Shown here one piece after another: positions 3,605-29,843 of a stretch of DNA of 32,000 bases (position 1 is its first letter; each line of letters opens with the position of its first letter). A program made the position numbers and the translations under genes. The stretch comes from Crocinitomix sp. Its GTDB lineage: Bacteria > Bacteroidota > Bacteroidia > Flavobacteriales_D > Crocinitomicaceae. The stretch is from positions 30,991 through 62,990 of the forward strand of contig JBLHOW010000002.1 of assembly GCA_047623705.1 (NCBI GenBank), in the 5' to 3' direction. A model generated the notes under the pieces. It saw only the letters and a list, made by a program, of their open reading frames with translations, had not been told where the DNA came from and ran no database searches.

Positions 3605-3660
3605 AATAGTAGAGTTGCGGTTAAACTAATTTCCTTCGTTAAGTGAAGGTTTCTTTATTT

Positions 3661-5976: not shown

Positions 5977-5993
5977 AGTTGCAAAAGTCTAGG

Positions 5994-8612: not shown

Positions 8613-8619
8613 AATCAAA

Positions 8620-12737: not shown

Positions 12738-12758
12738 TCGATAAAAGTTTTTGTAGAA

Positions 12759-12790
12759 AGCGAGAATCTTAACGGTTCTCGCTTTTTTTA
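12759..12790 (+). terminator. rho-independent terminator of ahcY
   Basis: AGCGAGAA (12759-12766) pairs with TTCTCGCT (12776-12783) and is followed by a T-run (through 12789), 22 nt after the ahcY stop. Confidence 0.8.
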
Positions 12791-12841
12791 TGCGTTAGAA
12801 TTAAAAATGTGAAATCAATTTGGCTTATTGATAAGCTGAGA

Positions 12842-13276
12842 TCAATTGTATACTGTTACCGTATAAGCGCCATCCCAATAAGCGTTGTAGCGTCTTAATC
12901 CATATTGTGCTGGTCCAACTAGAACAACGCCGCTTAGAATACTGTATGTAGAACCGGAGCAAGTGTCAACCAATTCAAATGGATTGTCTGCGTTTACTTC
13001 AACAACTGCGCATTCATTTTCCGAATCATAAGTGGAATGTCTGTCTAAAGCTACAAACTCGTCAAAGTTGCGGTAAATTACAATTCCACGTGATCCTCCA
13101 TTTACATAAGCAAATCCTCCCGGCGAATTTAATGCGGTATATGACGGTAAATCTAAGTTCAAGCTGAGGTTGACAGGCAGATTTGGGATGGGGTAATCTT
13201 TTTCTTTACAATTTGTTAGAAATAAACTTGTAAAAAGTAGTCCGAATAAAAAGTATCTTAAATATATTTGTTGCAT
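12842..13276 (-). CDS. small lipoprotein, possibly a degenerate Rieske-fold domain (144 aa)
   Basis: ATG at 13276 gives MQQIYLRYFLFGLLFTSLFLTNC, a signal peptide plus lipobox Cys. The C-terminal half (IVIYRN.DEFVALDRHSTY...LVDTCSGSTYSILSGVVLVGPAQYGLRRY....G.YTVTV) has the spacing of a Rieske domain but lacks a full Cys/His ligand set. The 45-codon upstream extension in the track looks spurious. Confidence 0.6.
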   Translation of the reverse strand: MQQIYLRYFLFGLLFTSLFLTNCKEKDYPIPNLPVNLSLNLDLPSYTALNSPGGFAYVNGGSRGIVIYRNFDEFVALDRHSTYDSENECAVVEVNADNPFELVDTCSGSTYSILSGVVLVGPAQYGLRRYNAYWDGAYTVTVYN

Positions 13277-13565
13277 GGAGAAACGATTGTATAAAACTAT
13301 AACGAAAATAATCATAATTATTGCATCAATCATTGTAGTTCCCCAAAATGGGTTTTTGCAGGACCGAGGAGCGAAGAGTGTTAAGTCAGGAGATAAGGGG
13401 AGTAAAGGCAAGCGCGTTAAGAGTACCTACAAGAAGCAAAAAAGAACACGAAAGAAACATTGGAAAAACCAAGACAAAGCAACGCGTAAAAGAATGAAAC
13501 GTGCAGCAAAAAACGCTAGAAGACGTCAAAAGGGGAAGCCCATGAAGAATAATAGACTGGTATAA
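13275..13565 (+). CDS. possible small membrane-anchored polybasic protein (96 aa)
   Basis: MEKRLYKTITKIIIIIASIIVV is a hydrophobic N-terminus. It is followed by a tail in which 27 of the last 56 residues are K/R (KGSKGKRVKSTYKKQKRTRKKHWKNQDKATRKRMKRAAKNARRRQKGKPMKNNRLV). I recognise no homologue, and its ATG overlaps the divergent lipoprotein ATG, so it may be non-coding. Confidence 0.35.
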   Translation: MEKRLYKTITKIIIIIASIIVVPQNGFLQDRGAKSVKSGDKGSKGKRVKSTYKKQKRTRKKHWKNQDKATRKRMKRAAKNARRRQKGKPMKNNRLV

Positions 13566-13738: not shown

Positions 13739-16700
13739 ATGCTTAAAAAACTAAAATTATTACTTGCAATACTCTTTCTTTCAGTGAGTTCAAGTTTTGC
13801 TCAAACAGGTACCGGATCTATTAAAGGTACCGTAAAAGACAAAACTTCGGGTGAAGGCTTGCCATTTGTGAAAGTTGTTGCTTTCCAAGGTGGCCAACAA
13901 AAGGGTTATGCACAAACAGATTTTGATGGAAAATTTAAAATTTCATCTTTACCTCCAGGCGAATATGCTGTAGAGGTTCGTTTTGTTGGTTATACATCAA
14001 TTCGGAAAGAAGGAGTTTTGGTGAACTCTGATAAATTAACAAGCTTACCGCTTGAATTAGCCACTTCTGACGAAATGTTAGATGTTGTAGAGGTAACTTA
14101 TTATGAAGTTCCTTTAATTGATAAAGATGGTGGTGCTTCTGGAGCGGTTGTTACACGTGACGATATCTCTAAGATGCCAACGCGATCTGCTGCTGGTATT
14201 GCTGCCACAGTTGGTGGTGTTTATCAAGCTGAAGGAGATGGTGACCAGTTGAGTATTCGTGGGGCGCGATCAGATGCGACTTATTATTATATTGATGGTA
14301 TTAAGGTAAGGGGTTCTTCTTCATTACCAAAATCTGCAATACAAGAGGTTGCTGTAATTACTGGAGGGGTTCCTGCAAATTATGGTGATTTGACTGGTGG
14401 AATTATCTCAATTACAACACGTGGGCCTTCAGCCAAATATTTTGGATCAATTGAAGCAGTAACATCTGGCTTTTATTTTAATGGTCAGGATCCAATTGGA
14501 TATGACGGTAAAGTAATTGGTTTAGATAAATATGCCTACAACTTACTTGAAGGATTGATTTCTGGTCCTATCTTAATGAAGAGAGATTCTTCTGGAAGAC
14601 CAACAAAACCTCGTTTAGGGTTTTTCCTATCAGCTAACTATACAGACGTTATAGATAGCAGACCATTGTCTGGTGGTGGCGGATACCGTATCAAACAAGG
14701 AGTTAGAGATTCATTAATTGCAAATCCCTTACGTCCAACAGGACAAGAAGGTGGTGGAGCTTATTATAACGCAGATTTCTTAAGACATTCAAGTGATCCT
14801 GAATTATCGGATTTCGAACAAGTGCCTTGGAGAATGAACGCAAGAGGGACTTCTTTCTCAGCAGCTGGTAAGATTGATGTAAACGCAGGACCAAACATTA
14901 ACTTAACGTTTGGTGGTAACATGGCATATAACAATAGAACTAATTATAGTTATAGCAATTCATTATTCAATTTTGAGAATTTCGGAAAAGAACGAAGTAT
15001 TGATTGGAGAGTATATGGTAGGTTTACACAACGTTTTAATAATAATCAAGAAGGTTCATCTTCTAAAATTAAAAGTGCATACTATTCATTAATGGTAGAT
15101 TACTCTCAATCTCATAATAGACTTTGGGATGCGAATCACGAAGATCGTCTATTTAACTACGGACATGTAGGGAAATTTGAAACTTTCAGAGAAACAACGT
15201 ATGAATTCAACACAAACAGTGATAGTTTAGTTCATAACGGTTTCAGAGATACAATAGTAATATTTACGCCTTCTACGAATAACGCGGCATTCGCATCAAT
15301 CACAGAACAGTATTTCGATATTTATGCTGGAAATCCATTCGGTAATTATGAAAACCTTTTCCAAATTGAGCAAGGAAACGCACTAAGAAATGGTGATCTT
15401 CCCCAAAGTGTTTATGGAATTTGGAGCAACGTTGGTACTCCGTCTAACAATTATAGAACGAGACAAAGAGATCAATTCCGTATTACAGGTTCAGGTACAA
15501 TTAACTTAAATGACCATGCAATTTCATTAGGATTTGAGTACGAGCAAAGATGGGATAGATCATTCCAGTCTGCAAGACAGGGACCAATAGGACTTTGGAC
15601 AATTGCACGTCAGTACATGAATAGCCACATTGAGGAGTTAGATCAAAGCAAGTCTTCATTTGATTATTATGGAACTTTCCCAAGAATTACCTACGAGCGT
15701 TTAAATGCTTCTGAAGGTGAGTTTGGTGGACAAGAAAATGATGACGCACAGTATTTCTTTGATTATAACGTAAGAAATAAATTAGGACTTGATCCTGATG
15801 GAACTGATTATATCGATATTGATGCTTTGGATCCTGATTTCTTTACATTAGATATGTTTAGTGCAGATGAACTATTGAATTCAGGTAATAACTTCTTTAC
15901 TTGGTTTGGATATGATCACACTGGAGAAAAAGTTAAGGGGAATACAGATATCAATAAATACTTCAACGAATTCAATAGCGACCAAAACTACGCAAGAACG
16001 ATTGGTGCTTTCCAACCAATTTATATCTCTGGATATATAATGGATAAGTTTGCATTTGATGATATTATTTTCAATGTTGGTTTACGTGTAGATGTATTTG
16101 ATGCTAACCAACCAGTATTGAAAGATAAATACTTATTGTATGAAGCTAAGACTGTACAAGAAGTATCAGAATTTGATAACGGAACGGCGATTGAACATCC
16201 AGCTAATATGGGAGATGACTACGTAGTTTACGTGAATGATGTGGATAACCCAACTTCAATTAATGGATATAGAACAGGTGATACATGGTATGACGCTACA
16301 GGTGTTGAAGTATCGGATCCAACAGTATTAGAAGGTAGTAAAGGTATTGCACCTTGGTTACAAGATAATACGTTGACTACACCAAACGCTGATGCATTTG
16401 AAGATTATAAGCCGCAAATTAATGTAATGCCTAGGGTTGCGTTTTCATTCCCTATCTCAGATGAGGCATCTTTCTTTGCACATTATGACATCTTAACAAA
16501 ACGACCTACAACTGGAAATAGATTTGATCCAATTCAATATCAATTCTTACAAGATCGTAACCTAGTTGTGAATAACCCGAATTTAAAACCGGAAAAAACA
16601 ATTGATTACGAATTAGGTTTCCAACAAGTATTAACGAAAACTTCATCTTTAAAAATATCTGCTTTCTATAAAGAGCAAAGAGATCAAGTACAGTTAGTGA

Positions 16701-17479
16701 ATGTATTCTCAGCATATCCGAATACTTACCGTTCATATGGTAACAGAGATTTCGGAACGGTGAAAGGATTAACTGTTTCATACGACTTAAGAAGAACAAA
16801 GAACATTAGAATGACTGCTTCTTATACGCTTCAATTCGCAAATGGTACTGGTTCTGATGCCAATTCAGCACTTACTTTAGTGAACTCAGGTGAGCCGAAC
16901 TTAAGAACTATTTTCCCATACACTTATGATCAAAGACACGGTTTCAACGTTGTGTTTGATTATAGATACGGAGATGGTAAAGATTATAACGGACCGGTTA
17001 TCGGAGACTTTGGTGTATTAGAAAACACAGGGTTGAACGTTGTAACTCAAATTGGATCAGGTACACCTTACTCAGGATATAAGCAAGCAGCTGGTGAAGC
17101 ATTATTATCTGCTGGTTCTTCACAGTTAGATGGATCATTGAACGGTTCAAGAAAACCTTGGCAATACAGAGTTGATCTTCAATTGGACAGAAACATCATG
17201 TTAGAATTCGGAGATGATGAGAACAAGAAAAAATCAGCTTATTTGAATGTGTATGTACGTGTTACCAACATATTTAACATTGTAAACGTATTGAACGTTT
17301 ATAGAGCAACTGGTAACCCTGATGATGACGGTTATTTAGCGGCATCTCAATTCCAAGCATCTATCCAAAATCAATTGGATGAGCAATCTTTTAGAGATTT
17401 CTATGCGTTGAAGGTTCAAAACCCTTTCAACTTAGGAATTCCGAGAACGATTAGATTAGGTGTTAAATTTGACTTTTAA
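13739..17479 (+). CDS. oversized TonB-dependent-receptor-like outer membrane protein (CarboxypepD_reg domain + plug + large beta-barrel, 1246 aa)
   Basis: Signal peptide MLKKLKLLLAILFLSVSSSFAQ. GSIKGTVKDKTSGEGLPFVKVVAF...GKFKISSLPPGEYAVEVRFVGY resembles the carboxypeptidase-regulatory-like domain. VVTRDDISKMPTRSAAGIAATVGGV...LSIRGARSDATYYYIDGIKV resembles the plug. The remainder is long, alternating and Gly/aromatic-rich, and ends ...IRLGVKFDF (terminal Phe, an OMP signature). Confidence 0.85.
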   Translation: MLKKLKLLLAILFLSVSSSFAQTGTGSIKGTVKDKTSGEGLPFVKVVAFQGGQQKGYAQTDFDGKFKISSLPPGEYAVEVRFVGYTSIRKEGVLVNSDKLTSLPLELATSDEMLDVVEVTYYEVPLIDKDGGASGAVVTRDDISKMPTRSAAGIAATVGGVYQAEGDGDQLSIRGARSDATYYYIDGIKVRGSSSLPKSAIQEVAVITGGVPANYGDLTGGIISITTRGPSAKYFGSIEAVTSGFYFNGQDPIGYDGKVIGLDKYAYNLLEGLISGPILMKRDSSGRPTKPRLGFFLSANYTDVIDSRPLSGGGGYRIKQGVRDSLIANPLRPTGQEGGGAYYNADFLRHSSDPELSDFEQVPWRMNARGTSFSAAGKIDVNAGPNINLTFGGNMAYNNRTNYSYSNSLFNFENFGKERSIDWRVYGRFTQRFNNNQEGSSSKIKSAYYSLMVDYSQSHNRLWDANHEDRLFNYGHVGKFETFRETTYEFNTNSDSLVHNGFRDTIVIFTPSTNNAAFASITEQYFDIYAGNPFGNYENLFQIEQGNALRNGDLPQSVYGIWSNVGTPSNNYRTRQRDQFRITGSGTINLNDHAISLGFEYEQRWDRSFQSARQGPIGLWTIARQYMNSHIEELDQSKSSFDYYGTFPRITYERLNASEGEFGGQENDDAQYFFDYNVRNKLGLDPDGTDYIDIDALDPDFFTLDMFSADELLNSGNNFFTWFGYDHTGEKVKGNTDINKYFNEFNSDQNYARTIGAFQPIYISGYIMDKFAFDDIIFNVGLRVDVFDANQPVLKDKYLLYEAKTVQEVSEFDNGTAIEHPANMGDDYVVYVNDVDNPTSINGYRTGDTWYDATGVEVSDPTVLEGSKGIAPWLQDNTLTTPNADAFEDYKPQINVMPRVAFSFPISDEASFFAHYDILTKRPTTGNRFDPIQYQFLQDRNLVVNNPNLKPEKTIDYELGFQQVLTKTSSLKISAFYKEQRDQVQLVNVFSAYPNTYRSYGNRDFGTVKGLTVSYDLRRTKNIRMTASYTLQFANGTGSDANSALTLVNSGEPNLRTIFPYTYDQRHGFNVVFDYRYGDGKDYNGPVIGDFGVLENTGLNVVTQIGSGTPYSGYKQAAGEALLSAGSSQLDGSLNGSRKPWQYRVDLQLDRNIMLEFGDDENKKKSAYLNVYVRVTNIFNIVNVLNVYRATGNPDDDGYLAASQFQASIQNQLDEQSFRDFYALKVQNPFNLGIPRTIRLGVKFDF

Positions 17480-17513
17480 GAAGTTTTAAACGGAGAAGTT
17501 TAATAAAGAAATT

Positions 17514-20500
17514 ATGAAGAAGCTATTATTAAGTATTTTAGTGTTAGGGCTGACGAACGTGATGTATGCCTACAAATTAGAAGGACATCTCGGACCAAGG
17601 GGTGATTCTGACTCTGAGTCTCGTGCGGCAGGATGTTCTCCAGCTAATGAGAAGATTTTCATGGAGTTCAACAATATTAGAGCATTGGTGGAAACTGGTG
17701 GATCTCTATGGCAAGACCGTTCTAACGGACGCTCTTCTTATGAATATCCAAAAGACAGTAGAAATCATGTAATCTATTCAGGAGCACTTTGGATGGGTGG
17801 TGAAGACATTAACGGTCAATTGAAATTGGCTGCACACATGTTCCGCCAAGGAAATGATTTTTGGCCTGGACCTTTAGGAGATTTAATTTCCGGTACAGGT
17901 AATTACAATCCATTTATTCCTCAAAATGCAGATGCAACATTAGTAAGAGATTACGGTGCAGCTGAGATTTTCACAGGAGAATGTACTAAATATGACAAGT
18001 TTTTCTCAATCAGAAAGAGTGAAGTTATTCAATTCATTACATGGTGGAAATGTGATAATGGTGTAAGTGATCCTGAAGATTGTGAAGAAGTTGAACGTCC
18101 AAGCGAAGAAATTCTAGACAAAATTAGAAACTGGCCAGCACATGGTGATGAGTCATTAGGTCAAGATTTCTATTTAGCTCCTTTCTATGATAATACAAAA
18201 GAAGGTGAAACACCAAATGGAATTTATGATCCAATAAATGATGGAGATTACCCTTGGTATGATGTTGAAGAAGAAATTGATTGTAGAAATGACAGACGTG
18301 TAACACTTTTTGGTGATGAAACGCATTGGTGGGTATTTAACGATAAAGGAAATATTCACACAGAGTCTGGTGGAGATCCAATTGGTATGGAGATTCGTGC
18401 GCAAGCATTCTCTTTCGCTACAGATGACGAAATCAATGACATGACTTTCTATAACTATGAGTTAATCAATAGAGGTACTCAAACATTATATGAAACTTAC
18501 TTTGGTCAGTGGTGTGATGCTGATTTAGGTTACGGATTGAATGATGATGATTATATTGGTTGTGATGTTGGTAGAGGTTTAGGTTACTGTTATAATGGTG
18601 ATTTAAATGATGAAGGTGGTGGAAACCAACCAGGTTATGGTGCAAACCCTCCTGCTGTAGGTATTGACTTCTTTGAAGGACCATATTTAGATAATGATAA
18701 CATAGATAATCCATTATATAGAGCAGAGGCAGAAGGTGATTTACCAGCGGTATTATTACCTGAAGTATTTGCAAATGACGGTATTCCTTACCCAGGTTTA
18801 GGAATTGGATACGGTGATGGTGTTGTAGATAATGAGCGTTTTGGAATGCAACGATTTGTATATCACGAACGTGATCCAGGTGCTTACGGAGATCCAAGTT
18901 CAGCGGCAGATTTCTATAACTACTTAAGAGGTATATGGAAAAATGGATTAAACATGCAATGGGGTGGTAACGGAAACACAAGTGGTTCTGGAGTTCCAAC
19001 TAAATTTATGTATCCAGATGATTCCGATCCATTAGGATGGGGAACTTATCCTACACCACTTCCTTCTTCGGATCCATGGTCAGAAATTAGCGTAGGAAAC
19101 CCTAAAGGGGATAGAAGATTCTTACAATCTGCTGGTCCGTTTATCTTACGTCCAGGAGCTGTAAATAATATTACTGTTGGAGTTGTAATTGGTCAAAGTA
19201 GTGAGTCTGATCTTGAAGCACCGATTAGAGCTTTAAAAACTGCGGATACTAAAGCACAAGCTTTATTCGATAATTGTTTCGAATTAGTTGAGCCGCCATT
19301 AGCGCCAGTATTGACTATTCAGGAAATGGAAAACCAATTGATCCTTTTCTTAACAGATCCTGCAATTGTTGAATCTTTAGAATCTTATGAAGAAGAAGAT
19401 AATATCAATATTATTACTCCAGATGAATTAATCGCAATGGGTATCTTCTATGATAACATATATCGTTTCGAAGGATTCCAAGTTTATCAAATGGTTGATG
19501 ATTTAGCTTCAATTACTGAACTTTCAGACCTTTCTAAAGCACGTCTAGTTGGACAATCTGATTTAGAAAATGGAATTGGAAAATTAGTTAACTATACATA
19601 TGACGAAGAATTAGATATTTCGATTCCTGCAGTTATGGTAGAAGCAGCTGGAGAATTTGATTTAGATAAAGGTTTACGTCGTTCATTCTCAGTAACTGAA
19701 GATTTATTTGCTACTGGTGACAGAACGTTAGTTAACCATAAGAAATACTATTTCTTGGCTGTTTCTTATGCTTATAATCAATATAAAGAATACGATCCAA
19801 ATGATCCAACTTTATTAGATGGTCAAAAGAACCCTTACTTACGTTCAAGAATTTCTGCAACAGGTGCAGGTATTGAATCTGTAGTGGGTATTCCGCATGA
19901 TCCATCTCCTGAGGCAGACGGTAGAGTGTTTACTACTTCTTACGGATTCCAACCAGAAATTACACAAATTGAAGGTGAAGGAAACGGTGGTACATTCTTA
20001 GAATTGACAACTGCAACTGTAACAGATATTTTAGCAAACAATCAAATTGATCATCCTACTTACCAAAGTGGTGCTGGACCAATTGACATTAAAGTTGTTG
20101 ATCCATTAAACTTAAAAGGTGGAGCATATACGTTAGGATTTGTTACTGATTCAAGTGAGATTGATGAAACAACTTGGTGGCTAGAAAAATTCGCTGATGA
20201 TGAAAGAGACACAGTATGGTCTGATGGAGCAATCAATGTTGTGAGAGAACAATTGATCTTAGATTGGGGTATTTCAGTTCAAATCAATCAACGGTATTAT
20301 ACAAATGCTGGTGTAAATGCTTTTACTGAGCCAATTGGAGCTTCAATTGATTTTGCAGATTCTTCTAAAATGTGGGTGAGTTTTGTTCAAGATGATGATG
20401 CTTTCTATCCTAGTAACTGGATTCGTGTAGGTAACAGTGAAGAAGCAAATAATCATGCGACTGATCCAAACCCTAGTTGTATAGCTGATAGCTGGATTTA

Positions 20501-21734
20501 TCAACCATGTCATTATGATGATGGTGGACTAGATGCAACTGATCAATTATACGAGCAATTGCTTGACGGTGGAATTGCACCATTTAAATTTGTTGCAAAG
20601 GCGCCTTACGGAAGTCCATTCGGATTCCCAGGAGAGAATACAAATACACCTTGGTATGAGTCGAATCAAAGTTGGTTTACATCTGCTTCTTCAGTTCAGA
20701 ATCAAATTTCAATGGTTGATTTGCATAGTGTTGATATCATCATTACTGCTGATAAATCGAAATGGACAAGATGTCCTGTATTGGAAATCAATAATATTGA
20801 AGTTCAAACGGAACATGGAGATCAAGTAATCACTCCAAGATCTGACGCTTCTGTTGGAAAAGATGGTTTACCTGATGGAGATGGTACTGGTATGGGTTGG
20901 TTCCCTGGGTATGCAATTGACATCATCACGGGAACTAGATTGAACATGGCATTTTCTGAGAACTCTTGGTTAAAAGGAGACAACGGAGATGATATGATTT
21001 GGAATCCTACTTCAAGCATGGTTGATAATTCTGGAGCACCATTATTCGGAGGAATGCATTATGTATATGTGTTCGGAAATAATACAGCAGGAGTTGATGA
21101 AGCACCGGCGTATGATGGAGGAAATTGGTTAAGAGGGATGATGGATGTTTCTGTATCGAATAGTGAACGTAACAACAATTACCGTAACCTTTGGAAAACA
21201 TGCTATTGGGTTATGGAACCAGTTTTAACGTTTGGACAAGAATTGTTATCGTCTGATGTTAAAATCAGTGCGCGTATCAATAAGCCTTATGAAGAGCGTG
21301 AAGTGAATGGTGAAAACGAAGGATACCCTCTTTACCAATTCAGTTTCGATAATCCTTCAATTGTTGGTAATGGAGATCGTTTAACTTCTGTACTAGACAA
21401 TATTAATATCGTACCTAACCCTTACTATGCTTATAGCGAGTATGAGACTGGGAAAAGAGATAATAGAGTTAAAGTAACAAACCTTCCTGAAAGATGTGAA
21501 GTAACGATCTTTAACATGCAAGGTGCTTTAGTTAGAAATTATGTGAAAGATGATCCTTTAACATCAGTTGATTGGGATTTGAAAAATCACTCAGGAATTC
21601 CTATTGCAGGTGGATTATACATTGTGCACATTAAGATTGAAATTCCAGATAGTGAAACTGGTGCGATCGTTGAGCATGAGAAAATCCTTAAATGGTATGG
21701 TGTATTAAGAACGCCAGACTTGGATAACTTGTAA
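17514..21734 (+). CDS. giant secreted protein of unknown function, copy 1 (1406 aa), with T9SS-CTD-like C-terminal domain
   Basis: ATG 34 nt after the receptor stop; signal peptide MKKLLLSILVLGLTNVMYA. Conserved Cys pattern and blocks such as HWWVFNDKGNIHTESGGDPIGMEIRAQAFSF, NDMTFYNYELINRGTQTL and DDYIGCDVGRGLGYCYN. The C-terminal end is IVPNPYYAYSEYE...VTNLPERCEVTIFNMQGALV...GGLYIVHIKI. I cannot name any catalytic or Pfam domain by eye. Confidence 0.85.
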   Translation: MKKLLLSILVLGLTNVMYAYKLEGHLGPRGDSDSESRAAGCSPANEKIFMEFNNIRALVETGGSLWQDRSNGRSSYEYPKDSRNHVIYSGALWMGGEDINGQLKLAAHMFRQGNDFWPGPLGDLISGTGNYNPFIPQNADATLVRDYGAAEIFTGECTKYDKFFSIRKSEVIQFITWWKCDNGVSDPEDCEEVERPSEEILDKIRNWPAHGDESLGQDFYLAPFYDNTKEGETPNGIYDPINDGDYPWYDVEEEIDCRNDRRVTLFGDETHWWVFNDKGNIHTESGGDPIGMEIRAQAFSFATDDEINDMTFYNYELINRGTQTLYETYFGQWCDADLGYGLNDDDYIGCDVGRGLGYCYNGDLNDEGGGNQPGYGANPPAVGIDFFEGPYLDNDNIDNPLYRAEAEGDLPAVLLPEVFANDGIPYPGLGIGYGDGVVDNERFGMQRFVYHERDPGAYGDPSSAADFYNYLRGIWKNGLNMQWGGNGNTSGSGVPTKFMYPDDSDPLGWGTYPTPLPSSDPWSEISVGNPKGDRRFLQSAGPFILRPGAVNNITVGVVIGQSSESDLEAPIRALKTADTKAQALFDNCFELVEPPLAPVLTIQEMENQLILFLTDPAIVESLESYEEEDNINIITPDELIAMGIFYDNIYRFEGFQVYQMVDDLASITELSDLSKARLVGQSDLENGIGKLVNYTYDEELDISIPAVMVEAAGEFDLDKGLRRSFSVTEDLFATGDRTLVNHKKYYFLAVSYAYNQYKEYDPNDPTLLDGQKNPYLRSRISATGAGIESVVGIPHDPSPEADGRVFTTSYGFQPEITQIEGEGNGGTFLELTTATVTDILANNQIDHPTYQSGAGPIDIKVVDPLNLKGGAYTLGFVTDSSEIDETTWWLEKFADDERDTVWSDGAINVVREQLILDWGISVQINQRYYTNAGVNAFTEPIGASIDFADSSKMWVSFVQDDDAFYPSNWIRVGNSEEANNHATDPNPSCIADSWIYQPCHYDDGGLDATDQLYEQLLDGGIAPFKFVAKAPYGSPFGFPGENTNTPWYESNQSWFTSASSVQNQISMVDLHSVDIIITADKSKWTRCPVLEINNIEVQTEHGDQVITPRSDASVGKDGLPDGDGTGMGWFPGYAIDIITGTRLNMAFSENSWLKGDNGDDMIWNPTSSMVDNSGAPLFGGMHYVYVFGNNTAGVDEAPAYDGGNWLRGMMDVSVSNSERNNNYRNLWKTCYWVMEPVLTFGQELLSSDVKISARINKPYEEREVNGENEGYPLYQFSFDNPSIVGNGDRLTSVLDNINIVPNPYYAYSEYETGKRDNRVKVTNLPERCEVTIFNMQGALVRNYVKDDPLTSVDWDLKNHSGIPIAGGLYIVHIKIEIPDSETGAIVEHEKILKWYGVLRTPDLDNL

Positions 21735-21768
21735 GATATTTAAAGTATTAATTTGAAATTCATTGAAA

Positions 21769-22845
21769 ATGAAAGTAAATAAATTAATTAAAAACACATT
21801 CTTAGCAACAGTAGCACTCGGTTTGAGCAGTGCAGCTTTTGCTGGAAATGGTGATAGAGTTGGTTCTGCGGGAGCAACTGAATTACTCATCAATCCATGG
21901 GCACGAAGTGCTGCTTGGGGAGATGCTGGAGTGTCTTGTGCAAATGGTATTGATGCTGTTTTTACAAATATTGCTGGTCTTGCCTTTACAGAAAAGACAC
22001 AAATTCGCTTTGACAGAACAAATTGGCTTGGTGGAGCAGGAATTAATATTAATTCAGCAGGTTTCGCTCAACGAATCTCTGAAAGTAGTGTGATTTCAGT
22101 AACAGTAATGGCCATGACTTTTGGCGATATTGATATTACAACAGTTGATTTACCTGAAGGTGGAATCGGAACGTATTCACCGACGTATTCAAACTTTAAT
22201 GTTGGATATGCACGTGAATTCTCGAATTCTATTTATGGAGGAATCAATTTCAAAGTAATTTCTGAATCTATTGCAGATTTAAAAGGTACTGGAGTAGCAA
22301 TTGATGCTGGAATTAGATATGTAACTGGAGAAGAAGATCAAATGAAATTCGGTATTACATTAAAAAATATCGGGCCAACAATGAGCTTCAATGGTGATGG
22401 TCTTGGACAACAAGTACTATATCCTGGTTCTGGTGACCTTGCAACTTTAGAGCAAAGATCGGCTACGTTTGAGATGCCATCTTTACTTGCAATTGGTGGA
22501 TCATATGATTTTAACTTCACCGAAACAAATAAATTAACGTTAGCCTTAGCGTTCTCTGCAAATTCTTTTTCAAATGATCAATTCCGTATCGGAGTAAATT
22601 ATGGAATGGAATTAGAGAAAGCAAGATTTAACTTAATGGCTGGTTATGTTTATGAATCAGGCATCCTTCAATCTAACTTTGGATACCGTGAGCGTGTAAC
22701 TGCATTAAGCGGTTTAACAGCTGGTGTATCAGTAGATGCAGTTGTTGGAAAAAGTAAGAGTATGTTAGGTATTCAATATGGCTTCCGTCTTACTGAAAAT
22801 TTCGGAAACATACATACAATTGGATTATCAATAGAGATTTTATAG
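21769..22845 (+). CDS. PorV/PorQ-family (FadL-like) outer membrane beta-barrel protein
   Basis: The track start at 21763 is a TTG; the ATG at 21769 gives MKVNKLIKNTFLATVALGLSSAAFA (signal peptide). The mature N-terminus GNGDRVGSAGATELLINPWARSAAWGDAGVSCANGIDAVFTNIAGLAF matches the G.(s/a)GA.fL.i....Ra.a(m/l)G.A..A...d..a...NpAGLA signature of the PorV/PorQ (UPF0164-like) family. The rest has alternating beta-strand character. Confidence 0.7.
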   Translation: MKVNKLIKNTFLATVALGLSSAAFAGNGDRVGSAGATELLINPWARSAAWGDAGVSCANGIDAVFTNIAGLAFTEKTQIRFDRTNWLGGAGININSAGFAQRISESSVISVTVMAMTFGDIDITTVDLPEGGIGTYSPTYSNFNVGYAREFSNSIYGGINFKVISESIADLKGTGVAIDAGIRYVTGEEDQMKFGITLKNIGPTMSFNGDGLGQQVLYPGSGDLATLEQRSATFEMPSLLAIGGSYDFNFTETNKLTLALAFSANSFSNDQFRIGVNYGMELEKARFNLMAGYVYESGILQSNFGYRERVTALSGLTAGVSVDAVVGKSKSMLGIQYGFRLTENFGNIHTIGLSIEIL

Positions 22846-22853
22846 AAGTATTA

Positions 22854-22901
22854 CTTATTCCGCCATCCTTACTAATGCGAACGTAAGGATGGCTGAGTAA
22901 G
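22854..22901 (+). terminator. strong hairpin 9 nt after the PorV/PorQ-like stop (terminator-like, but no U-tract)
   Basis: The core is an 11-bp perfect stem, GCCATCCTTAC (22862-22872) / GTAAGGATGGC (22883-22893), with a 10-nt loop. It extends by 7 further pairs (22854-22860 / 22895-22901, one G-U) after one mismatch. It is followed by GAGTTAAAAAC, not a T-run. Confidence 0.5.
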
Positions 22902-23153
22902 AGTTAAAAACAATAGCCACCCATGTGTGGCCGTTAACCCAAAGTGCTTATAGCACACATTCAAGTTAGCATTTGGCTAACATCCTCAGTAAGATTAGGT
23001 GTAAGTTCGGCTTTTAATTGAAATAGATTAAAAGACATTCGTTTTAATACTATAAACGAATCAATATTGGGAATTGCGAATTATTCTTTCCATTTAAACT
23101 TTATTTCATTTAAAAAATTAACGCGTTACTGCGAATTTATAGTGCGTTAATTT
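22854..23153 (+). other. hairpin-dense structured intergenic region (candidate cis-regulatory leader, processing site or small RNA)
   Basis: Seven perfect-stem inverted repeats lie within 300 nt: 22854-22901; GCCAC/GTGGC 22916-22931; GTGCT/AGCAC 22944-22956; GTTAGC/GCTAAC 22965-22981; CTTTTAAT/ATTAAAAG 23011-23034; ATTCGTTT/AAACGAAT 23037-23061; AAATTAACGC/GCGTTAATTT 23115-23153. The first ~150 nt is visibly more GC-rich than the surrounding intergenic DNA. Confidence 0.45.
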
Positions 23154-23185
23154 GGCGTTTATTCGTCCGTTTCTCAGTCTAGGTG

Positions 23186-23193
23186 TACGTTTG
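23186..23193 (+). promoter_or_regulatory. candidate -7 promoter element for giant protein copy 2
   Basis: TACGTTTG matches TAnnTTTG, 32 nt upstream of the ATG at 23225. There is no clean -33 TTG at consensus spacing. Confidence 0.3.
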
Positions 23194-23224
23194 ACTTTTT
23201 ATCTATTAACTAAATATAAAGGTT

Positions 23225-26200
23225 ATGAAAAAGTCGATTTTAATTGTTTTTGCTCTTTTGAGCGCAAATCTTGTCTTTGCGGACATTTTTATTAATTCCC
23301 GAAATGCGGTTGCACCAAGTGATTCCAGAGCGGCGACTTGCTCACCAGCAAGTGAAAAGGTTTTTATGGAATTAAATAACGTTCGTGCCATTGTAGAAAC
23401 TGCAGGTTTTTTGTGGGAAGACCGAGCAACATCAAGCGCGGGATATGAATATCCCAAGGGTAGTAATAGCTTCGTGATTTTTTCTGGCGCCCTTTGGATG
23501 GGTGGAGAAGATGAGAATGGACAATTAAAAATCGCTGCGCATAGATATCGGCAAGAAGGAAATGATTTTTGGGCAGGACCATTGCAACAGCTTGATCAAG
23601 GTAATGGAAATTATGATCCGGCCATTCCGCAAGAATCTGATGTGAACCTAACAAGACCTTATGGAGCTGCAAGGATTGCTGATTCTTTTTGTGACGAATA
23701 TGACAAGTTTTTCACTATTCGTAAAGTAGAGGTGGAAGAATTTGTCCGCTGGTGGAATTGCGATCGAGGATATTCAAGCGAAGAAGATTGTGAGGAGGTT
23801 GAATACCCTAGTCAAGAACTAATGGATAAAATTGAAAACTGGCCTGCACATGGAGATGAATCTATTGGGCAAGATAAATATTTAGCTCCTTTTTACGATA
23901 ATTCAACACCTGGTAATCCTGCAAATGGAGTTTATAATCCAAAGGATGATGGAGATTACCCTTGGTTTGATCTTGAAGGTGATGTAAGCTGTAAAAATGA
24001 TCGTAGAGTAACCCTTTATGGTGATGAAACGCATTGGTGGGTATTTAATGATAAAGGAAATATCCATACCGAAACTGGTGGAGAACCAATTGGAATGGAA
24101 ATACGTGCACAAGCCTTTTCATTTGCAACTGACGACGAAGTAAATGATATGACTTTTTATAATTATGAACTAATCAATAGAGGTACGCAGACATTAAAAA
24201 ATACTTATTTCGGTCAATACGTTGACCCTGATATTGGTTTAGCGACAAATGATTACGTTGGATGTGATGTTAAACGAGGATTGGGCTACTGTTACAATGC
24301 AGAGGTGAATGATATTGGACAGGGCTCACAAACACCGTACGGTAATAATGTGCCAGCTGTAGGAATCGATTTTTTCGAAGGCCCTTATCAAGATAAAGAT
24401 AATATTGATAATCCAATTTATAAAACTGTGGCTGATTCAACTGAACCTATCGCCTTAATGCCACGCGTATTTGCAGAAAAAGGTATTCCTTATTCTGGTT
24501 TAGGGATTGGTTATGGCGACGGAATAATAGATAATGAACGATTTGGAATGCAACGTTTCGTTTATTATAATAATTCAACTGCCGACAATGGCGATCCGCA
24601 AACGGCTGGAGAACATTATAATTATATGAAAGGTTTGTGGCGGAATGGACAAGCTATGACTTATGGTGATAATGGTTTCTCTCCAAGTTCTTCCAATGTT
24701 CCTACGCGATTTATGTTTCCTGGTGATTCAGATCCATTGGGCTGGTCAACTTATCCGGCGGCAGTTCCAAGTCCGACAGATTGGTCAGAAATATCAGCAG
24801 ATACTGATCCTCAAGACAGACGCTTCATTCAATCTGCAGGACCCTTTGAATTAAAGCCGGGTGCCGTTAATAACATCACCGTGGGTGTAGTTATTGGTCA
24901 AAGTTCTGAAACAGACGTAGAAGCACCAATTCGAGCATTGAAAAGAGCAGATACTAAAGCACAGGATTTATTTGACAATTGTTTTGAAGTATTAGAACCG
25001 CCACTGCCGCCCGTATTAACAATTCAAGAAATGGAGAATGAATTGCTACTCTTTTTGTCTGATCCAGTAGGTGTAGCACCACTTGAGGATTATGAGGCAG
25101 AAGATTTTAGAATAAAGACGCCAGACGAATTACTCGATTCAGGAATTGTATATAATAATAAATTTAGTTTTGAAGGATTCCAAATTTATCAAATGCGTGA
25201 CGCAATAACGTCAATCACTGATATTGGTAATTTAGATAAAGCAAGATTAATAGCCCAAACTGATGTTATCAACGGTGTTGGTACATTGGTCAACTACACG
25301 TATGACGAAGAATTTGGATTGTCGATACCAGCCGTAATGGTTGAACCTGCTGGGGAATTTCCTTTGGATGGTGGTATTCGTAGATCATTCACAGTTACTG
25401 AAGATTTGTTTGCTTTAGAAGATCGTGGCTTGGTCAATCATAAGAAATATTATTTCCTTGCCGTTTCATATGCACAAAATCAATTTTTAGAATATGTCGC
25501 TGATGATCCGATTGGAATATACGGTCAGAAACAACCCTACCTAAGATCGCGTATAACTGCGAGAGGCTCGTCTATTGAATCTGTGATAGGGATTCCACAC
25601 GATCCTTCTCCAGAAGCGAACGGACGTGTATTTACGACAAGCTACGGTTTCCAACCTGAAATCACATTAATTGAAGGGTTAGGAAATGGAGGAGCATTTA
25701 CGGAGCTTTCTAAAGAAACTGTGACACAAATTCTGGCCAATGGCAAGGTTCTTAACCCGACATACCAAAGTGGAGCAGGACCAATTGATGTTAAAGTAAT
25801 TGATCCTTTAAACCTTAAAGGAGGACAATATACTTTAGGTTTTGGTAGAGATTCAGCTTCATTGAATGAGGACACGTATTGGATTGAACGTTTGTCAGAA
25901 GGACAACGAGATACCATTTTCTCTCAAAAAGAAATTTCAGTTGCCCGCGAACAGCTTATTTTGGAATGGGGAATTTCAGTTCGAATCAATCAAAATTATT
26001 ATACGGGTACGATAGCCAATCCATTTACAGAACCAATTGGAGCCACTATATCTTTTTTAGATTCTTCAAAAAGATGGTTGAGTTTCGTTCAAGATGATGA
26101 CAATTTTTATCCTTCAAATTGGATTTTAACGGGGAATAGTGACGAATATGATGCAGATAATGATGATAATCCAGAGAATGTTCCAGCTAGATGGATTTAT

Positions 26201-27466
26201 CAACCTGGACATTATGATGATAATCAAGTCTTAGATAAGACTGACCAATTGTACGAACAAATGTTAGACGGTGGAATTGCACCCTTTAAATTTGTGTCAC
26301 AAGGAGTTTATGGGGGTCCATTCGGATTTCCAGCTGATGATCCAAATACATCTTGGTATCGAACAAATGAATCATGGTTTATTGGGTCGGATGCCATTCA
26401 AAAAACCATTTCATTAGATGAACTACATGATGTGGATATTATCATCACAACAGATAAGTCAAAATGGTCCAGATGTCCGGTAATAGAAATTAATGATAAC
26501 CCAATTAATACCGAACATGGTGATTATGTATTACAACCACGTAGTGATGCGTCTGTTGATAAACAAGGATTGTCTGCGGCAGAAGGTGGAGTAGCGAGTG
26601 AAGCGAATTTAACGGATGAAACCGGTATGGGTTGGTTCCCTGGCTATGCACTAGATGTGAGCACAGGTGCACGTTTAAATATGGTATTTGCCGAAAACTC
26701 GTGGTTAGTAGGTGATAATGGTGATGACATGATTTGGAACCCTACATCAAGTTACAGCGACAATGCGGGTAATCCATTATTTGGAGGGATGCATTACGTT
26801 TACGTTTTTGGTGAAAACTTAGAGGGTTCTGGTAAATCTCCTGCATATGATCATGGTAAATGGTTACGCGAACGTTTTGAACCTGAATTGGACGACGCAG
26901 ACAAAAGACAAGAGTATAGAAAAGCGTGGAAAACGTGTTTATGGGTAACTGAACCAATGTTGGCAGAAAATCAAGATTTACTTGCAACTGATGTGAAGAT
27001 AAGCGCAAGAATTAATATGCCATATGTTGAACGTGATGTGAATGGTGAAAATGAGGGCTTTCCAATGTATCAATTTGGATTTGAAAATCCTTCCTATACC
27101 AATGATGCGGATCGATTGATTTCAGTAATTGATAACATCAATGTTGTACCAAATCCGTACTACGCTTATAGTTCATATGAAACTAACAAACGTGATAATC
27201 GAATAAAGTTCACCAACTTACCTGAGCGCTGTGAAGTAACGATTTTCAATATGCAAGGTGCCTTAGTGCGTAGGTTCGTTAAAAATGATCCCTTAACCTC
27301 AATCGATTGGGATTTGCGTAATCACCAAAGTATCCCAATTGCTGGCGGTGCCTACATCATTCACGTGAAAATTGAAGTGCCAGACGAGAATGGAGAACTT
27401 GTTGAACATGAAAAGATTTTGAAATGGTTCGGCGTTCTAAGGAAACCTGATTTAGATAATTTATAG
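23225..27466 (+). CDS. giant secreted protein of unknown function, copy 2 (1413 aa), paralogue of 17514-21734
   Basis: Signal peptide MKKSILIVFALLSANLVFA. Collinear with copy 1 along its whole length; about two-thirds identical in the segments I aligned by eye, with near-identical blocks (HWWVFNDKGNIHTETGGEPIGMEIRAQAFSFATDDEVNDMTFYNYELINRGTQTL; NLPERCEVTIFNMQGALVR; HEKILKWFGVLRKPDLDNL). Confidence 0.85.
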   Translation: MKKSILIVFALLSANLVFADIFINSRNAVAPSDSRAATCSPASEKVFMELNNVRAIVETAGFLWEDRATSSAGYEYPKGSNSFVIFSGALWMGGEDENGQLKIAAHRYRQEGNDFWAGPLQQLDQGNGNYDPAIPQESDVNLTRPYGAARIADSFCDEYDKFFTIRKVEVEEFVRWWNCDRGYSSEEDCEEVEYPSQELMDKIENWPAHGDESIGQDKYLAPFYDNSTPGNPANGVYNPKDDGDYPWFDLEGDVSCKNDRRVTLYGDETHWWVFNDKGNIHTETGGEPIGMEIRAQAFSFATDDEVNDMTFYNYELINRGTQTLKNTYFGQYVDPDIGLATNDYVGCDVKRGLGYCYNAEVNDIGQGSQTPYGNNVPAVGIDFFEGPYQDKDNIDNPIYKTVADSTEPIALMPRVFAEKGIPYSGLGIGYGDGIIDNERFGMQRFVYYNNSTADNGDPQTAGEHYNYMKGLWRNGQAMTYGDNGFSPSSSNVPTRFMFPGDSDPLGWSTYPAAVPSPTDWSEISADTDPQDRRFIQSAGPFELKPGAVNNITVGVVIGQSSETDVEAPIRALKRADTKAQDLFDNCFEVLEPPLPPVLTIQEMENELLLFLSDPVGVAPLEDYEAEDFRIKTPDELLDSGIVYNNKFSFEGFQIYQMRDAITSITDIGNLDKARLIAQTDVINGVGTLVNYTYDEEFGLSIPAVMVEPAGEFPLDGGIRRSFTVTEDLFALEDRGLVNHKKYYFLAVSYAQNQFLEYVADDPIGIYGQKQPYLRSRITARGSSIESVIGIPHDPSPEANGRVFTTSYGFQPEITLIEGLGNGGAFTELSKETVTQILANGKVLNPTYQSGAGPIDVKVIDPLNLKGGQYTLGFGRDSASLNEDTYWIERLSEGQRDTIFSQKEISVAREQLILEWGISVRINQNYYTGTIANPFTEPIGATISFLDSSKRWLSFVQDDDNFYPSNWILTGNSDEYDADNDDNPENVPARWIYQPGHYDDNQVLDKTDQLYEQMLDGGIAPFKFVSQGVYGGPFGFPADDPNTSWYRTNESWFIGSDAIQKTISLDELHDVDIIITTDKSKWSRCPVIEINDNPINTEHGDYVLQPRSDASVDKQGLSAAEGGVASEANLTDETGMGWFPGYALDVSTGARLNMVFAENSWLVGDNGDDMIWNPTSSYSDNAGNPLFGGMHYVYVFGENLEGSGKSPAYDHGKWLRERFEPELDDADKRQEYRKAWKTCLWVTEPMLAENQDLLATDVKISARINMPYVERDVNGENEGFPMYQFGFENPSYTNDADRLISVIDNINVVPNPYYAYSSYETNKRDNRIKFTNLPERCEVTIFNMQGALVRRFVKNDPLTSIDWDLRNHQSIPIAGGAYIIHVKIEVPDENGELVEHEKILKWFGVLRKPDLDNL

Positions 27467-27587: not shown

Positions 27588-28061
27588 ATGTCAGAATTAG
27601 ACTATTATACGCAAGAGGGATACGATAAATTGAAGGCTGAATTAAAGCACATGAAAACTGTGCTTCGTCCTAGCCTTTCCGAACAAATTGGAGAAGCTAT
27701 TGATAAAGGAGATTTATCAGAAAATGCAGAATATGATGCCGCTAAAGAAGCTCAAGGGTTATTAGAAGCAAAAATAAATAAATTAGAAAACGTTGTTTCC
27801 AACGCACGGGTATTAGATGATTCGGACTTGGACACATCTAAGGCGCTAATTTTGAGTAATGTCAGAATTAAGAACGTAGGCAACGGAATGGAATTAACCT
27901 ACACCTTAGTTGCCGAAAATGAAGCTGACCTTAAGGCGAAGAAAATATCGGTAGACTCTCCAATAGGAAAAGGGCTTTTAGGTAAAGAAGTTGGTGATCT
28001 TGCCGACATTGAAGTGCCAAATGGGGTAATGCAATTTGAAATTTTAGAAATCACTAGATAA
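27588..28061 (+). CDS. greA: transcription elongation factor GreA
   Basis: 157 aa. The N-terminal coiled-coil YTQEGYDKLKAELKHMKTV.RP...IGEAIDKGDLSENAEYDAAKEAQG..EAKI..LE and the C-terminal ISVDSPIGKGLLGKEVGD are typical of GreA. Confidence 0.95.
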   Translation: MSELDYYTQEGYDKLKAELKHMKTVLRPSLSEQIGEAIDKGDLSENAEYDAAKEAQGLLEAKINKLENVVSNARVLDDSDLDTSKALILSNVRIKNVGNGMELTYTLVAENEADLKAKKISVDSPIGKGLLGKEVGDLADIEVPNGVMQFEILEITR

Positions 28062-28456
28062 TGGCTTCAATTTTTACTAAAATCATCAACGGAGAAATTC
28101 CAGCGCATATAGTTGCTGAGAACGATAAATTTTTCGCTTTTCTAGATATTTCACCTTTACAGAAAGGGCACACGTTGGTGATTCCAAAAAAGGAAGTGGA
28201 CTATATTTTTGATGTGGAAGATGAGTTGTTGGGAGAGATGATGATTTTCGCAAAACAAGTTGCGCGCAAAATAAAAATAGTGTTTCCATCCTTCAATCGA
28301 ATTGGCGTAACAGTGATCGGTTTAGAAGTGCCGCATGCTCATATCCATTTAGTGCCAATTAATCAAATGGCAGACATGAATTTTTCAAATGAAAAACTTA
28401 GTCTATCTCAAGATGAATTAGCGAAAATTGCTTTCGATATAAGAGCAGCTAAATAA
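28061..28456 (+). CDS. HIT-family (histidine triad) nucleotide hydrolase
   Basis: 131 aa. N-terminal IFTKIINGEIPA, FLDI.P...GHTLVIPK and the histidine triad HAHIHLVP. The start overlaps the greA stop (TAATG). Confidence 0.92.
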   Translation: MASIFTKIINGEIPAHIVAENDKFFAFLDISPLQKGHTLVIPKKEVDYIFDVEDELLGEMMIFAKQVARKIKIVFPSFNRIGVTVIGLEVPHAHIHLVPINQMADMNFSNEKLSLSQDELAKIAFDIRAAK

Positions 28457-28490
28457 TTGGACCAAATTTAAATACAAATTATTGAACATA

Positions 28491-28530
28491 AAAAAAGCCC
28501 AGTTGCACATTTGCAACTGGGCTTTTTTTT
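28491..28530. terminator. bidirectional rho-independent terminator shared by the convergent HIT gene and the 28544-29671 gene
   Basis: AAAAAA, then GCCCAGTTGCA (28497-28507), loop CATT, TGCAACTGGGC (28512-28522), then TTTTTTTT. This is an 11-bp GC-rich perfect stem with an A-tract upstream and a T-tract downstream. Confidence 0.9.
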
Positions 28531-29671: not shown

Positions 29672-29843
29672 TTCTATTTTTTTTTCGAAGATAATTAAAA
29701 TACTTAAAATTGAGTTCATCCCAATTTTGTTTTACACAGTATCTGGTCTGAAATAGACGTAAAAGTTCAATTGTAATTTACTTATAATTCTGAACAGACA
29801 CTACTTTCTTTAAAACCCTAATTGCAATCGTCATACCAAACTG

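Follow-up and report, generated by a model that had tools for sequence, protein, structure and literature searches.

Does a locus that sets the gene for a secreted protein of about 1400 residues between those for an oversized TonB-dependent receptor and a PorV/PorQ-like outer-membrane barrel encode a single surface machine, and if so, of what kind? The question is raised by a 32,000-nt stretch of Crocinitomix sp. DNA (assembly GCA_047623705.1, contig JBLHOW010000002.1, positions 30,991 to 62,990; the whole stretch is hereafter called the window). An earlier note, made from the sequence alone, had singled out four large genes in it as an undescribed outer-membrane module consisting of a plug-barrel receptor, two paralogous giant proteins (here A and B) and a PorV/PorQ-like barrel. 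Our analysis confirmed this observation and showed that the conserved unit is the trio of receptor, giant and barrel, not the four genes. All four open reading frames (ORFs) lie on the plus strand where the note had placed them, with a 379-nt spacer before the last:

13739-17479, plus strand, receptor gene, ORF of 1246 aa
17514-21734, plus strand, giant A gene, ORF of 1406 aa
21763-22845, plus strand, PorV/PorQ-family barrel gene, 358-360 aa, start at TTG 21763 or ATG 21769
22846-23224, plus strand, hairpin-rich spacer of 379 nt
23225-27466, plus strand, giant B gene, ORF of 1413 aa

The gap from the receptor gene to the giant A gene is 34 nt, and that from giant A to the barrel gene is 28 nt from TTG 21763 or 34 nt from ATG 21769, the latter being the figure given earlier. 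Among the matches listed, which here and below are the best 80 to 150 per homology search, the closest homologues of the window proteins come from Crocinitomix and Crocinitomicaceae (Flavobacteriales). The nearest locus (L004 in our numbering) belongs to an uncultured Crocinitomix sp., with protein identities of 83-95% across the region.

The receptor, the giant proteins and the barrel

The receptor comprises, in order, a signal peptide, a CarboxypepD_reg extension, a TonB-box-like stretch, a plug, a long barrel region and the C-terminus '...GVKFDF', with Phe as its last residue. Both N-terminal domains that the note had assigned scored above their Pfam cutoffs: CarboxypepD_reg at aa 27-103 with 58 bits, and Plug (PF07715) at aa 133-221 with 39.3 bits against a cutoff of 23.9, as in a TonB-dependent transporter. 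The barrel region of the window receptor was recognised weakly, by NCBIfam models of TonB-dependent transporters at aa 897-1035; PF00593 is recorded for many close homologues and for two of eight distant orthologues, and OMP_b-brl_3 for one of the eight. Between the N-terminal extension and the plug, at ~aa 113-126, the motif match 'LDVVEVTYYEVPLI' resembles a TonB box, and the consensus of the eight distant orthologues (33-41% identical to the reference sequence) reads 'VVEVVxYEVPLI'. A profile of the receptor family matched the plugs of Cir, PirA and FepA (E 5e-11) and also the N-terminal extension of SusC homologues, a likeness confined to that extension. The SusC/RagA signature (TIGR04056) was not matched by the receptor at E <= 0.01, the SusD Pfam family was absent from every neighbouring ORF scanned, and Pfam and NCBIfam scans found no SusD, glycoside hydrolase or regulator domain in the block, in agreement with the note's view that this is not a Sus-like polysaccharide utilisation locus. 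Judged by its sequence, the receptor looks functional, with the hallmarks of an energised transporter.

Giants A and B are 66% identical from end to end, which bears out their description as paralogues. Giant A consists of a Sec signal peptide, a beta-rich body of ~1270 aa, a putative type-A-like C-terminal domain (CTD) of the T9SS (type IX secretion system) at ~aa 1290-1394 and the tail 'GVLRTPDLDNL'; giant B shares the CTD and the tail. No Pfam domain was detected in giant A, and none is precomputed for the giant family, which has at least 6,345 representatives at 50% clustering (E <= 1e-3), or at least 1,619 at E <= 1e-30, with member lengths of ~1240-1760 aa and the names 'T9SS type A sorting domain-containing protein' or 'hypothetical' at NCBI.

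The CTD-like ends that the note had proposed for both giants fall below cutoff in the window proteins and are clear family-wide. TIGR04183 gave 16.4 bits for giant A, below its cutoff of 23, and no match for giant B, and the C-terminal ends of the two matched the C-termini of PorZ (E 2.9e-5, 22.7 bits) and PorU (E 4.6e-4). When 34 diverse members of the family were scanned with Pfam and NCBIfam, TIGR04183 was found in 24 of them at E <= 0.1 (best 2.7e-6), the PorZ C-terminus in 17 (best E 3.7e-10) and the PorU C-terminus in 10, and the recurrent Pfam families were C-terminal ones, Por_Secre_tail (PF18962; 9/34) and FlgD_ig. The domain features the motifs VPNPYY and GxY and, near its end, an invariant Lys (K1393) that corresponds to the Lys contacting PorV in solved translocon complexes (PMC10994853). 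The tail that follows it, 'G.LR.PDLDNL' or more broadly 'MRxxDLxN[LIF]', is conserved in giants encoded in trios and in giants encoded alone. At the family level, these matches clearly indicate a type-A-like T9SS sorting domain, nearest to that of PorZ.

A sequence search of the PDB with a single giant returned one non-significant match (E 0.91), and a profile of 40 giant sequences matched only the PorZ CTD (5m11, residues 669-753, E 0.06). An AlphaFold2 model of residues 20-1219 built from a 113-sequence alignment (predicted local distance difference test (pLDDT) score 86.7, predicted TM-score (pTM) 0.76), which replaced an earlier model from a shallow alignment (pLDDT 66.5), is mostly beta, with short helices only. 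Foldseek found no whole-chain PDB analogue of this model. Its partial matches, a similar weak set for both models, cover 330-590 columns with query TM-scores (TMq) of 0.10-0.17, in output without residue-level alignment for the giant, and include dextran dextrinase, glycoside hydrolase (GH) families GH15, GH65, GH94, GH116, GH149 and GH161, polysaccharide lyases and galactose mutarotase. The element common to these enzymes is a beta-supersandwich, and we read the predicted likeness of the giant to them as this shared element. In GH15, GH65, GH94 and GH116 enzymes, an (alpha/alpha)6 catalytic domain follows an N-terminal beta-sandwich; since the giant model has short helices only, the giant probably lacks this helical catalytic domain.

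A match of the giant to a characterised family (PorU sortase, SprA, a peptidase or a glycosidase) was sought, as the earlier note had proposed, and none was found. A PorU sortase was rejected on a match limited to the last ~90 residues (13.8-17.9 bits against the NF033707 cutoff of 420) and on the lack of Peptidase_C25 in the 34 members, and PorZ on 22.7 bits against the NF052228 cutoff of 260, from the CTD only and with the propellers unmatched. SprA, a peptidase and an adhesin-repeat protein were rejected on domain evidence, and a glycoside hydrolase or phosphorylase on the partial nature of the fold matches, the mostly-beta model and the lack of GH matches in Pfam apart from one to Glyco_hydro_65N (E 0.1 in 1/34). 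The invariant Cys41, considered as a sign of a lipoprotein, is not a lipobox because it lies ~24 residues past the hydrophobic core of the signal peptide. Insertions in the giants are concentrated at a few positions. One member of 1687 aa (P0393, locus L084, 10001-15064), named 'YCF48-related protein' at NCBI, has an inserted BNR/Ycf48-like propeller of ~350 aa near giant A residues 881-911.

The barrel scored 145.2 bits on the PorV/PorQ family model NF033709 against a cutoff of 90, so the family assignment of the note held, and 32.6 bits on Pfam PorV against a cutoff of 27. It remained below the equivalog cutoffs of PorV proper (NF033710, 69.6 bits against 250; orthologues 47-76), PorQ proper (NF033711, 70.1 against 220; orthologues 43-78) and PorV2 (NF052325, 44.8 against 325; orthologues at most 59), and seven distant orthologues showed the same pattern, with 113-165 bits on NF033709. 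TIGR03519 was matched by two of the seven at 19-23 bits against a cutoff of 90.55, and the sole sequence relative in the PDB is PorV (6h3i_F, E 2e-5). On these scores, the barrel is a separate PorV/PorQ subfamily, apart from PorV, PorQ and PorV2, in all eight proteins tested.

Conservation and linkage of the trio

Linkage was assessed from two sides, with 80 metagenome loci retrieved by the receptor profile only, independently of the giant, and 80 genome loci retrieved via the giant. From the receptor side, the giant starts at most 400 nt downstream of the receptor in 68 of the 68 loci with room for it, the barrel comes next after the giant in 37 of 38, and greA then follows in 31 of 33. From the giant side, receptor, giant, barrel, greA and a HIT-family gene stand in this order on one strand in ~55 of the 80 loci, and ~25 are stand-alone giants in unrelated contexts. 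The greA and HIT genes, at gaps of ~80-200 nt, are retained in most genome loci too, across deep divergence. Trio order persists to ~38% identity in Flavobacteriales and uncultured Bacteroidia: around eight distant giants (38-47% identity), the trio was found in seven contexts, always on the same strand with intergene gaps of 7-101 nt and with varying upstream genes, and the eighth giant (L088) stands alone. In L084, the trio is intact and no greA lies downstream.

The four-gene form of the window is a minority variant: of 98 loci with a barrel, 4 have a second giant 3' of it. A neighbour-joining tree placed giant B together with the giant in fourth position of L004, beside the Crocinitomix trio clade, and among the loci compared only this nearest relative has a giant B orthologue in the same position. 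Given this placement, giant B is a lineage-specific duplicate. The proposal that the four genes form a unit therefore did not hold as such; co-conservation in related genomes was found for receptor, giant and barrel and not for the second giant. In the same tree, the stand-alone paralogues form two ancient clades, one with 14 loci and the other with 7. In two loci with stand-alone giants (L019 and L080), a 253-259-aa OMP_b-brl_2 barrel (TDE1717-like) follows within ~10 nt of the giant, in the place of a PorV/PorQ barrel; L080 also has two type-B CTD proteins ahead of the giant.

Among the matches listed, all loci belong to Bacteroidota, and those with names fall in the Crocinitomicaceae/Cryomorphaceae group and uncultured Bacteroidia, with Flavobacterium, Porphyromonas and Cytophaga not among them. 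The one contig labelled KSB1 proved to be gene-for-gene syntenic with a metagenome-assembled genome labelled Bacteroidales. No trio locus from Ignavibacteriota, Fibrobacterota or Gemmatimonadota was among the matches listed in this non-exhaustive search. The earlier note had expected such trios elsewhere in the Fibrobacterota-Chlorobiota-Bacteroidota (FCB) group under hypothetical names. The trio does recur, near-obligately and under generic or hypothetical names (the receptors as 'TonB-dependent receptor' or 'carboxypeptidase regulatory-like domain-containing protein'), and among the matches listed it does so in Bacteroidota only. No published description of it was found in the literature searched on PorV-like, PorV2 and PorQ-family proteins with TonB-dependent receptors, on Crocinitomix or on Fluviicola.

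The spacer and the neighbouring genes

The spacer between the barrel and giant B genes, already described as hairpin-rich, folds to a minimum free energy of -89.5 kcal/mol, compared with -71.5 +/- 4.7 for shuffled sequences (z = -3.84; 0 of 100 shuffles as good). It is 86% identical to the L004 spacer, with the hairpins kept, and has no Rfam match. An 11-bp stem that starts ~16 nt past the barrel stop codon is a candidate terminator or stabiliser, and the remainder probably contains the promoter region of giant B. One hairpin (22964-22981, GTTAGC...GCTAAC) is altered on both pair sides in L004 (GCTAG...CTAGC), which hints, from two sequences compared, that structure is conserved beyond sequence. 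The strict Bacteroidota promoter pattern TTTG N17-23 TANNTTTG has no match within the block, and a single TAAATTTG precedes the receptor gene by 115 nt. The window contains these further features:

1466-10601, minus strand, upstream run of T9SS cargo genes: two FG-GAP, one CotH kinase-like with a lamin-tail domain (LTD), one Kelch propeller
8620-9381, PcrB-family gene amid the cargo run
12842-13411, minus strand, lipobox-like protein ('LFLTNC') of ~144 aa, true start probably ~13276, divergent and upstream of the trio
13275-13565, plus strand, 96-aa ORF 5' of the receptor gene, N-terminus signal-like, tail rich in Lys/Arg ('...QDKATRKRMKRAAKNARRRQKGK...')
27588-28456, plus strand, greA and HIT-family genes, directly 3' of the giant B gene
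28544-29719, minus strand, 391-aa ORF without Pfam family, with a C-terminal poly-Lys/Asp tail '...DDKKDDKKKKKK'
29844-30602, minus strand, LytTR response regulator
30652-32000, minus strand, tetratricopeptide repeat (TPR)/His_kinase sensor, extending past the window end

Por_Secre_tail scored above cutoff in all four cargo genes of the upstream run (the two FG-GAP, the CotH/LTD and the Kelch genes), and the host uses type IX secretion. The 96-aa ORF ends 173 nt before the receptor gene, and 30 of 119 loci have homologues with the core 'IQxKETRKRMKK' at 100-175 nt ahead of that gene. In 21 other loci, the same slot is occupied by a different small transmembrane protein with the conserved C-terminus 'KAVxYSEILxRPY'. 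No Pfam family was matched by either protein. Each is a possible fourth component, the membership of the 96-aa ORF being uncertain. The ~144-aa lipobox-like protein, which has no Pfam family, keeps its position in many loci at 39-88% identity, and in Crocinitomix loci the 391-aa ORF (54-87% identity) is retained after the HIT gene.

The LytTR two-component pair lies on the opposite strand, 2.4 kb downstream of the four-gene block. It was rejected as a core part of the module, as such genes adjoin trios or stand-alone giants in 8 of 88 loci (including L086, L087 and L088); the association is sporadic and may be regulatory. Strong hairpins at 12731-12791 (after ahcY) and 28472-28530 (after the HIT gene) gave sub-threshold matches to Rfam Thr_leader and several microRNA models and are most likely bidirectional terminators rather than members of those families.

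A proposed surface complex, its alternatives and its meaning

PorU and PorZ, both substrates of the T9SS, retain their CTDs and stay bound to PorV and PorQ, and a protective role towards CTDs has been proposed for 'cognate PorV-like barrels' (PMC10202324). Substrates exit the SprA translocon on a carrier barrel, PorV for type A cargo and a PorP/SprF-like protein for type B, and the latter carriers then anchor their cargo (PMC10994853). Given these retained CTDs and carrier barrels, a dedicated PorV-like anchor is plausible by analogy, and we tentatively favour, at somewhat less than even chances, a reading in which the barrel is the cognate T9SS carrier and anchor of the giant, and giant and receptor capture and import a substrate. 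The giant would be exported to the periplasm by Sec and recognised by the T9SS via its type-A, PorZ-like CTD, and the cognate barrel, rather than the general carrier PorV, would receive it from the SprA translocon. The CTD and the conserved tail, a candidate specificity element, would stay uncleaved, with the giant held non-covalently on the barrel at the cell surface in the manner of PorZ on PorQ, PorU on PorV and SprB on SprF. Thus anchored, the giant, as a rigid, beta-rich, multidomain protein, would stand beside or over the receptor and capture a substrate for import with TonB energy; on account of the fold matches, a glycan is the best guess and would be the most likely substrate. With this CTD and tail in common, giant B and the stand-alone giants would use the same barrel too. 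That the giant works with the receptor is suggested by a receptor that was never found without a giant downstream and that keeps its transporter hallmarks. The model of an anchor beside a TonB-dependent channel, as put forward in the earlier note, fits all the evidence and has published precedents; unproven as it is, we regard it as partly supported.

Several findings weigh against this reading. Adjacency alone is no proof of function, because greA and HIT are conserved beside the trio almost as often (31/33), and giants can exist without an adjacent receptor, since ~25 of the 80 giant loci are stand-alone. In one exception lineage (L029, L033 and L034), receptor and giant are kept and the barrel is non-adjacent, with a 346-aa SOD-like protein and MgtE in place of barrel and greA. 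A mirror-tree comparison, in which pairwise distances within the trio co-vary at r 0.88-0.90 (0.68-0.75 against greA, 0.39-0.50 against HIT; partial r 0.76-0.79), speaks for the reading instead, as evidence of co-evolution, and does so weakly because the control proteins are short, which lowers their correlations. The fold matches behind the glycan proposal are weak (TMq 0.16-0.17, root-mean-square deviation 8-11 A) and reveal no binding site. A type A CTD is normally carried by PorV and cleaved by PorU, so its retention here is an assumption. Finally, such strong conservation beside housekeeping genes is unusual for a substrate-specific uptake locus, as these normally vary between species.

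Several known systems come close to the trio. In the PorZ-PorQ and PorU-PorV pairs of Porphyromonas gingivalis, a large T9SS-exported protein keeps its CTD on a 14-strand PorV/PorQ-family barrel (PMC10202324), an arrangement that the trio, known from its genes, would share. The giant CTD is most similar to the CTDs of PorZ and PorU, whereas outside it the giant has neither propellers nor a C25 peptidase; the trio barrel, unlike PorV, PorQ and PorV2, lies below all three equivalog cutoffs, and nothing in the T9SS attachment complex corresponds to the obligately linked TonB-dependent receptor. The gene order of porU-porV, a large CTD protein and then a barrel, is also that of the trio. In SprB-SprF and type-B cargo of Flavobacterium johnsoniae, the cargo gene likewise adjoins the gene for its cognate barrel, and the carrier replaces PorV and then anchors the cargo (PMC10994853, PMC10202324). 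In contrast to that system, the giant CTD is type A-like with TIGR04131 unmatched, the trio barrel belongs to the PorV/PorQ and not the PorP/SprF family, and the giant lacks gliding-adhesin repeats.

SusC-SusD (RagA-RagB) resembles the trio in the CarboxypepD_reg extension, TonB box and plug of its receptor, in a large barrel (putative in the trio receptor) and in the next gene downstream, which encodes a surface-exposed partner with a proposed role in substrate capture and hand-over. It differs in that the trio receptor has no SusC/RagA signature and its partner is a 1400-aa T9SS cargo without a SusD Pfam match rather than a TPR lipoprotein of ~550 aa. The trio also includes a third gene, the barrel anchor, is not accompanied by glycoside hydrolases or regulators, and is conserved across families and orders rather than species-variable. 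A further parallel is BamG-BamH, in which a 14-strand FadL/PorV-like barrel holds a large extracellular protein by its loops and packs against a larger barrel (PMC12578637), a structural precedent for a barrel, a surface protein and a big barrel; no sequence relationship was seen, and no test for one was made. BamH is a surface lipoprotein, not T9SS cargo, and the partner barrel is BamA, not a TonB-dependent receptor. The Oar protein of Myxococcus xanthus resembles a TonB-dependent transporter and reportedly acts for secretion of the protease PopC. It is a plug-barrel protein of unusual size that begins with a carboxypeptidase-regulatory-like domain and is functionally tied to a secreted protein, as the trio receptor would be; that system has no T9SS or PorV-like barrel, and an Oar-specific model was not matched in our general Pfam and NCBIfam scans.

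Other explanations of the trio were weighed against the import reading. The giants might be a surface coat or adhesin anchored by the barrel, the receptor being a docking platform or an independent neighbour and captured matter not being imported. This would suit the several giant paralogues per genome, many with no receptor or barrel nearby, a conserved giant scaffold with lineage-specific insertions such as the BNR/Ycf48 propeller of one member, and the lack of a detected catalytic or transport-related domain; side-by-side paralogous giant CTD proteins also recall the Tannerella surface-layer (S-layer) pair TfsA/TfsB. We consider it unlikely all the same, as the receptor subfamily was never found without a giant directly downstream (68/68), the retained TonB-box-like motif and plug suggest an active transporter over a passive platform, and adhesin repeats and S-layer families were unmatched in Pfam. 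The trio could instead be a T9SS accessory, a variant attachment or processing module in which the barrel-bound giant handles glycan or lipopolysaccharide or modifies cargo, like PorZ on PorQ. PorZ and PorU, whose CTDs come closest to that of the giant, are the two parts of the T9SS on which this domain is retained (PMC10202324), the PorQ and PorV models give the barrel equal scores, the unit is single per locus amid housekeeping genes and has many invariant polar residues, and the fold matches are to glycan-handling enzymes. Outside the CTD, however, the giant showed no likeness to the propellers of PorZ or to the C25 peptidase of PorU, TonB-dependent receptors have no known role in T9SS attachment, and the absence of Flavobacterium, Porphyromonas and Cytophaga from the matches listed speaks, if weakly, against a core T9SS part, making this explanation improbable.

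That the plug-barrel protein has a role in export, helping to secrete the giant or assemble it on the surface on the model of Oar for PopC, and not in import, strikes us as very unlikely. The giant has a T9SS sorting domain with its invariant Lys and, as T9SS cargo genes lie next door, there is already a route for secretion; a barrel of 22 strands would hardly let a folded, beta-rich protein of 150 kDa through, and stand-alone giants have no such receptor nearby. In favour of such a role are the resemblance of CarboxypepD_reg, plug and oversized barrel to Oar-type proteins and a receptor-giant linkage tighter than that of giant and barrel, as L029, L033 and L034 lack the adjacent barrel. Least probable, and by our estimate hardly to be expected, is the absence of any joint function, with the gene order a matter of inherited synteny alone or of an ordinary Sus-like nutrient locus. 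The presumably unrelated greA and HIT genes, conserved downstream almost as often, would be in keeping with synteny alone, but the three genes share a strand at gaps of 7-101 nt in the loci examined, co-occur near-obligately from either retrieval partner, stay together when the upstream flanks change and all encode outer-membrane or surface proteins; for a Sus-like locus, SusD, the SusC signature, glycoside hydrolases and a hybrid two-component or extracytoplasmic function (ECF) regulator were not found.

We see in the trio known kinds combined: a T9SS cargo with its cognate carrier, to which a TonB-dependent receptor is added. It is possible, if doubtful, that among the TonB-dependent outer-membrane machines of Bacteroidota it stands for a third architecture, in which the partner is a giant exported by the T9SS and seated on its own PorV/PorQ-like carrier, not a lipoprotein. 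If so, the T9SS would be needed to assemble an uptake complex, and the giant family would be a ligand-binding module whose stand-alone paralogues plug into the same anchor. Even should the import model fail, the near-obligate linkage strongly recommends the trio as a candidate for a new complex. Its carriers are abundant aquatic Flavobacteriales (Crocinitomicaceae and the Fluviicola group), with Crocinitomix catalasitica, Brumimicrobium and Putridiphycobacter among them in culture. If the import model is true, it would give a role to a family of ~1400-residue proteins with at least 6,345 clusters, no Pfam domain beyond the C-terminus and no solved analogue. The PorV/PorQ subfamily would be a cargo-specific T9SS carrier for a type-A-like CTD, extending the idea of a 'cognate carrier barrel' so far proposed for PorZ/PorQ and type-B cargo. 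Type IX secretion and TonB-dependent uptake, both hallmarks of Bacteroidota, would then be joined in one complex, and the trio may couple a surface protein to an uptake channel in a new manner.

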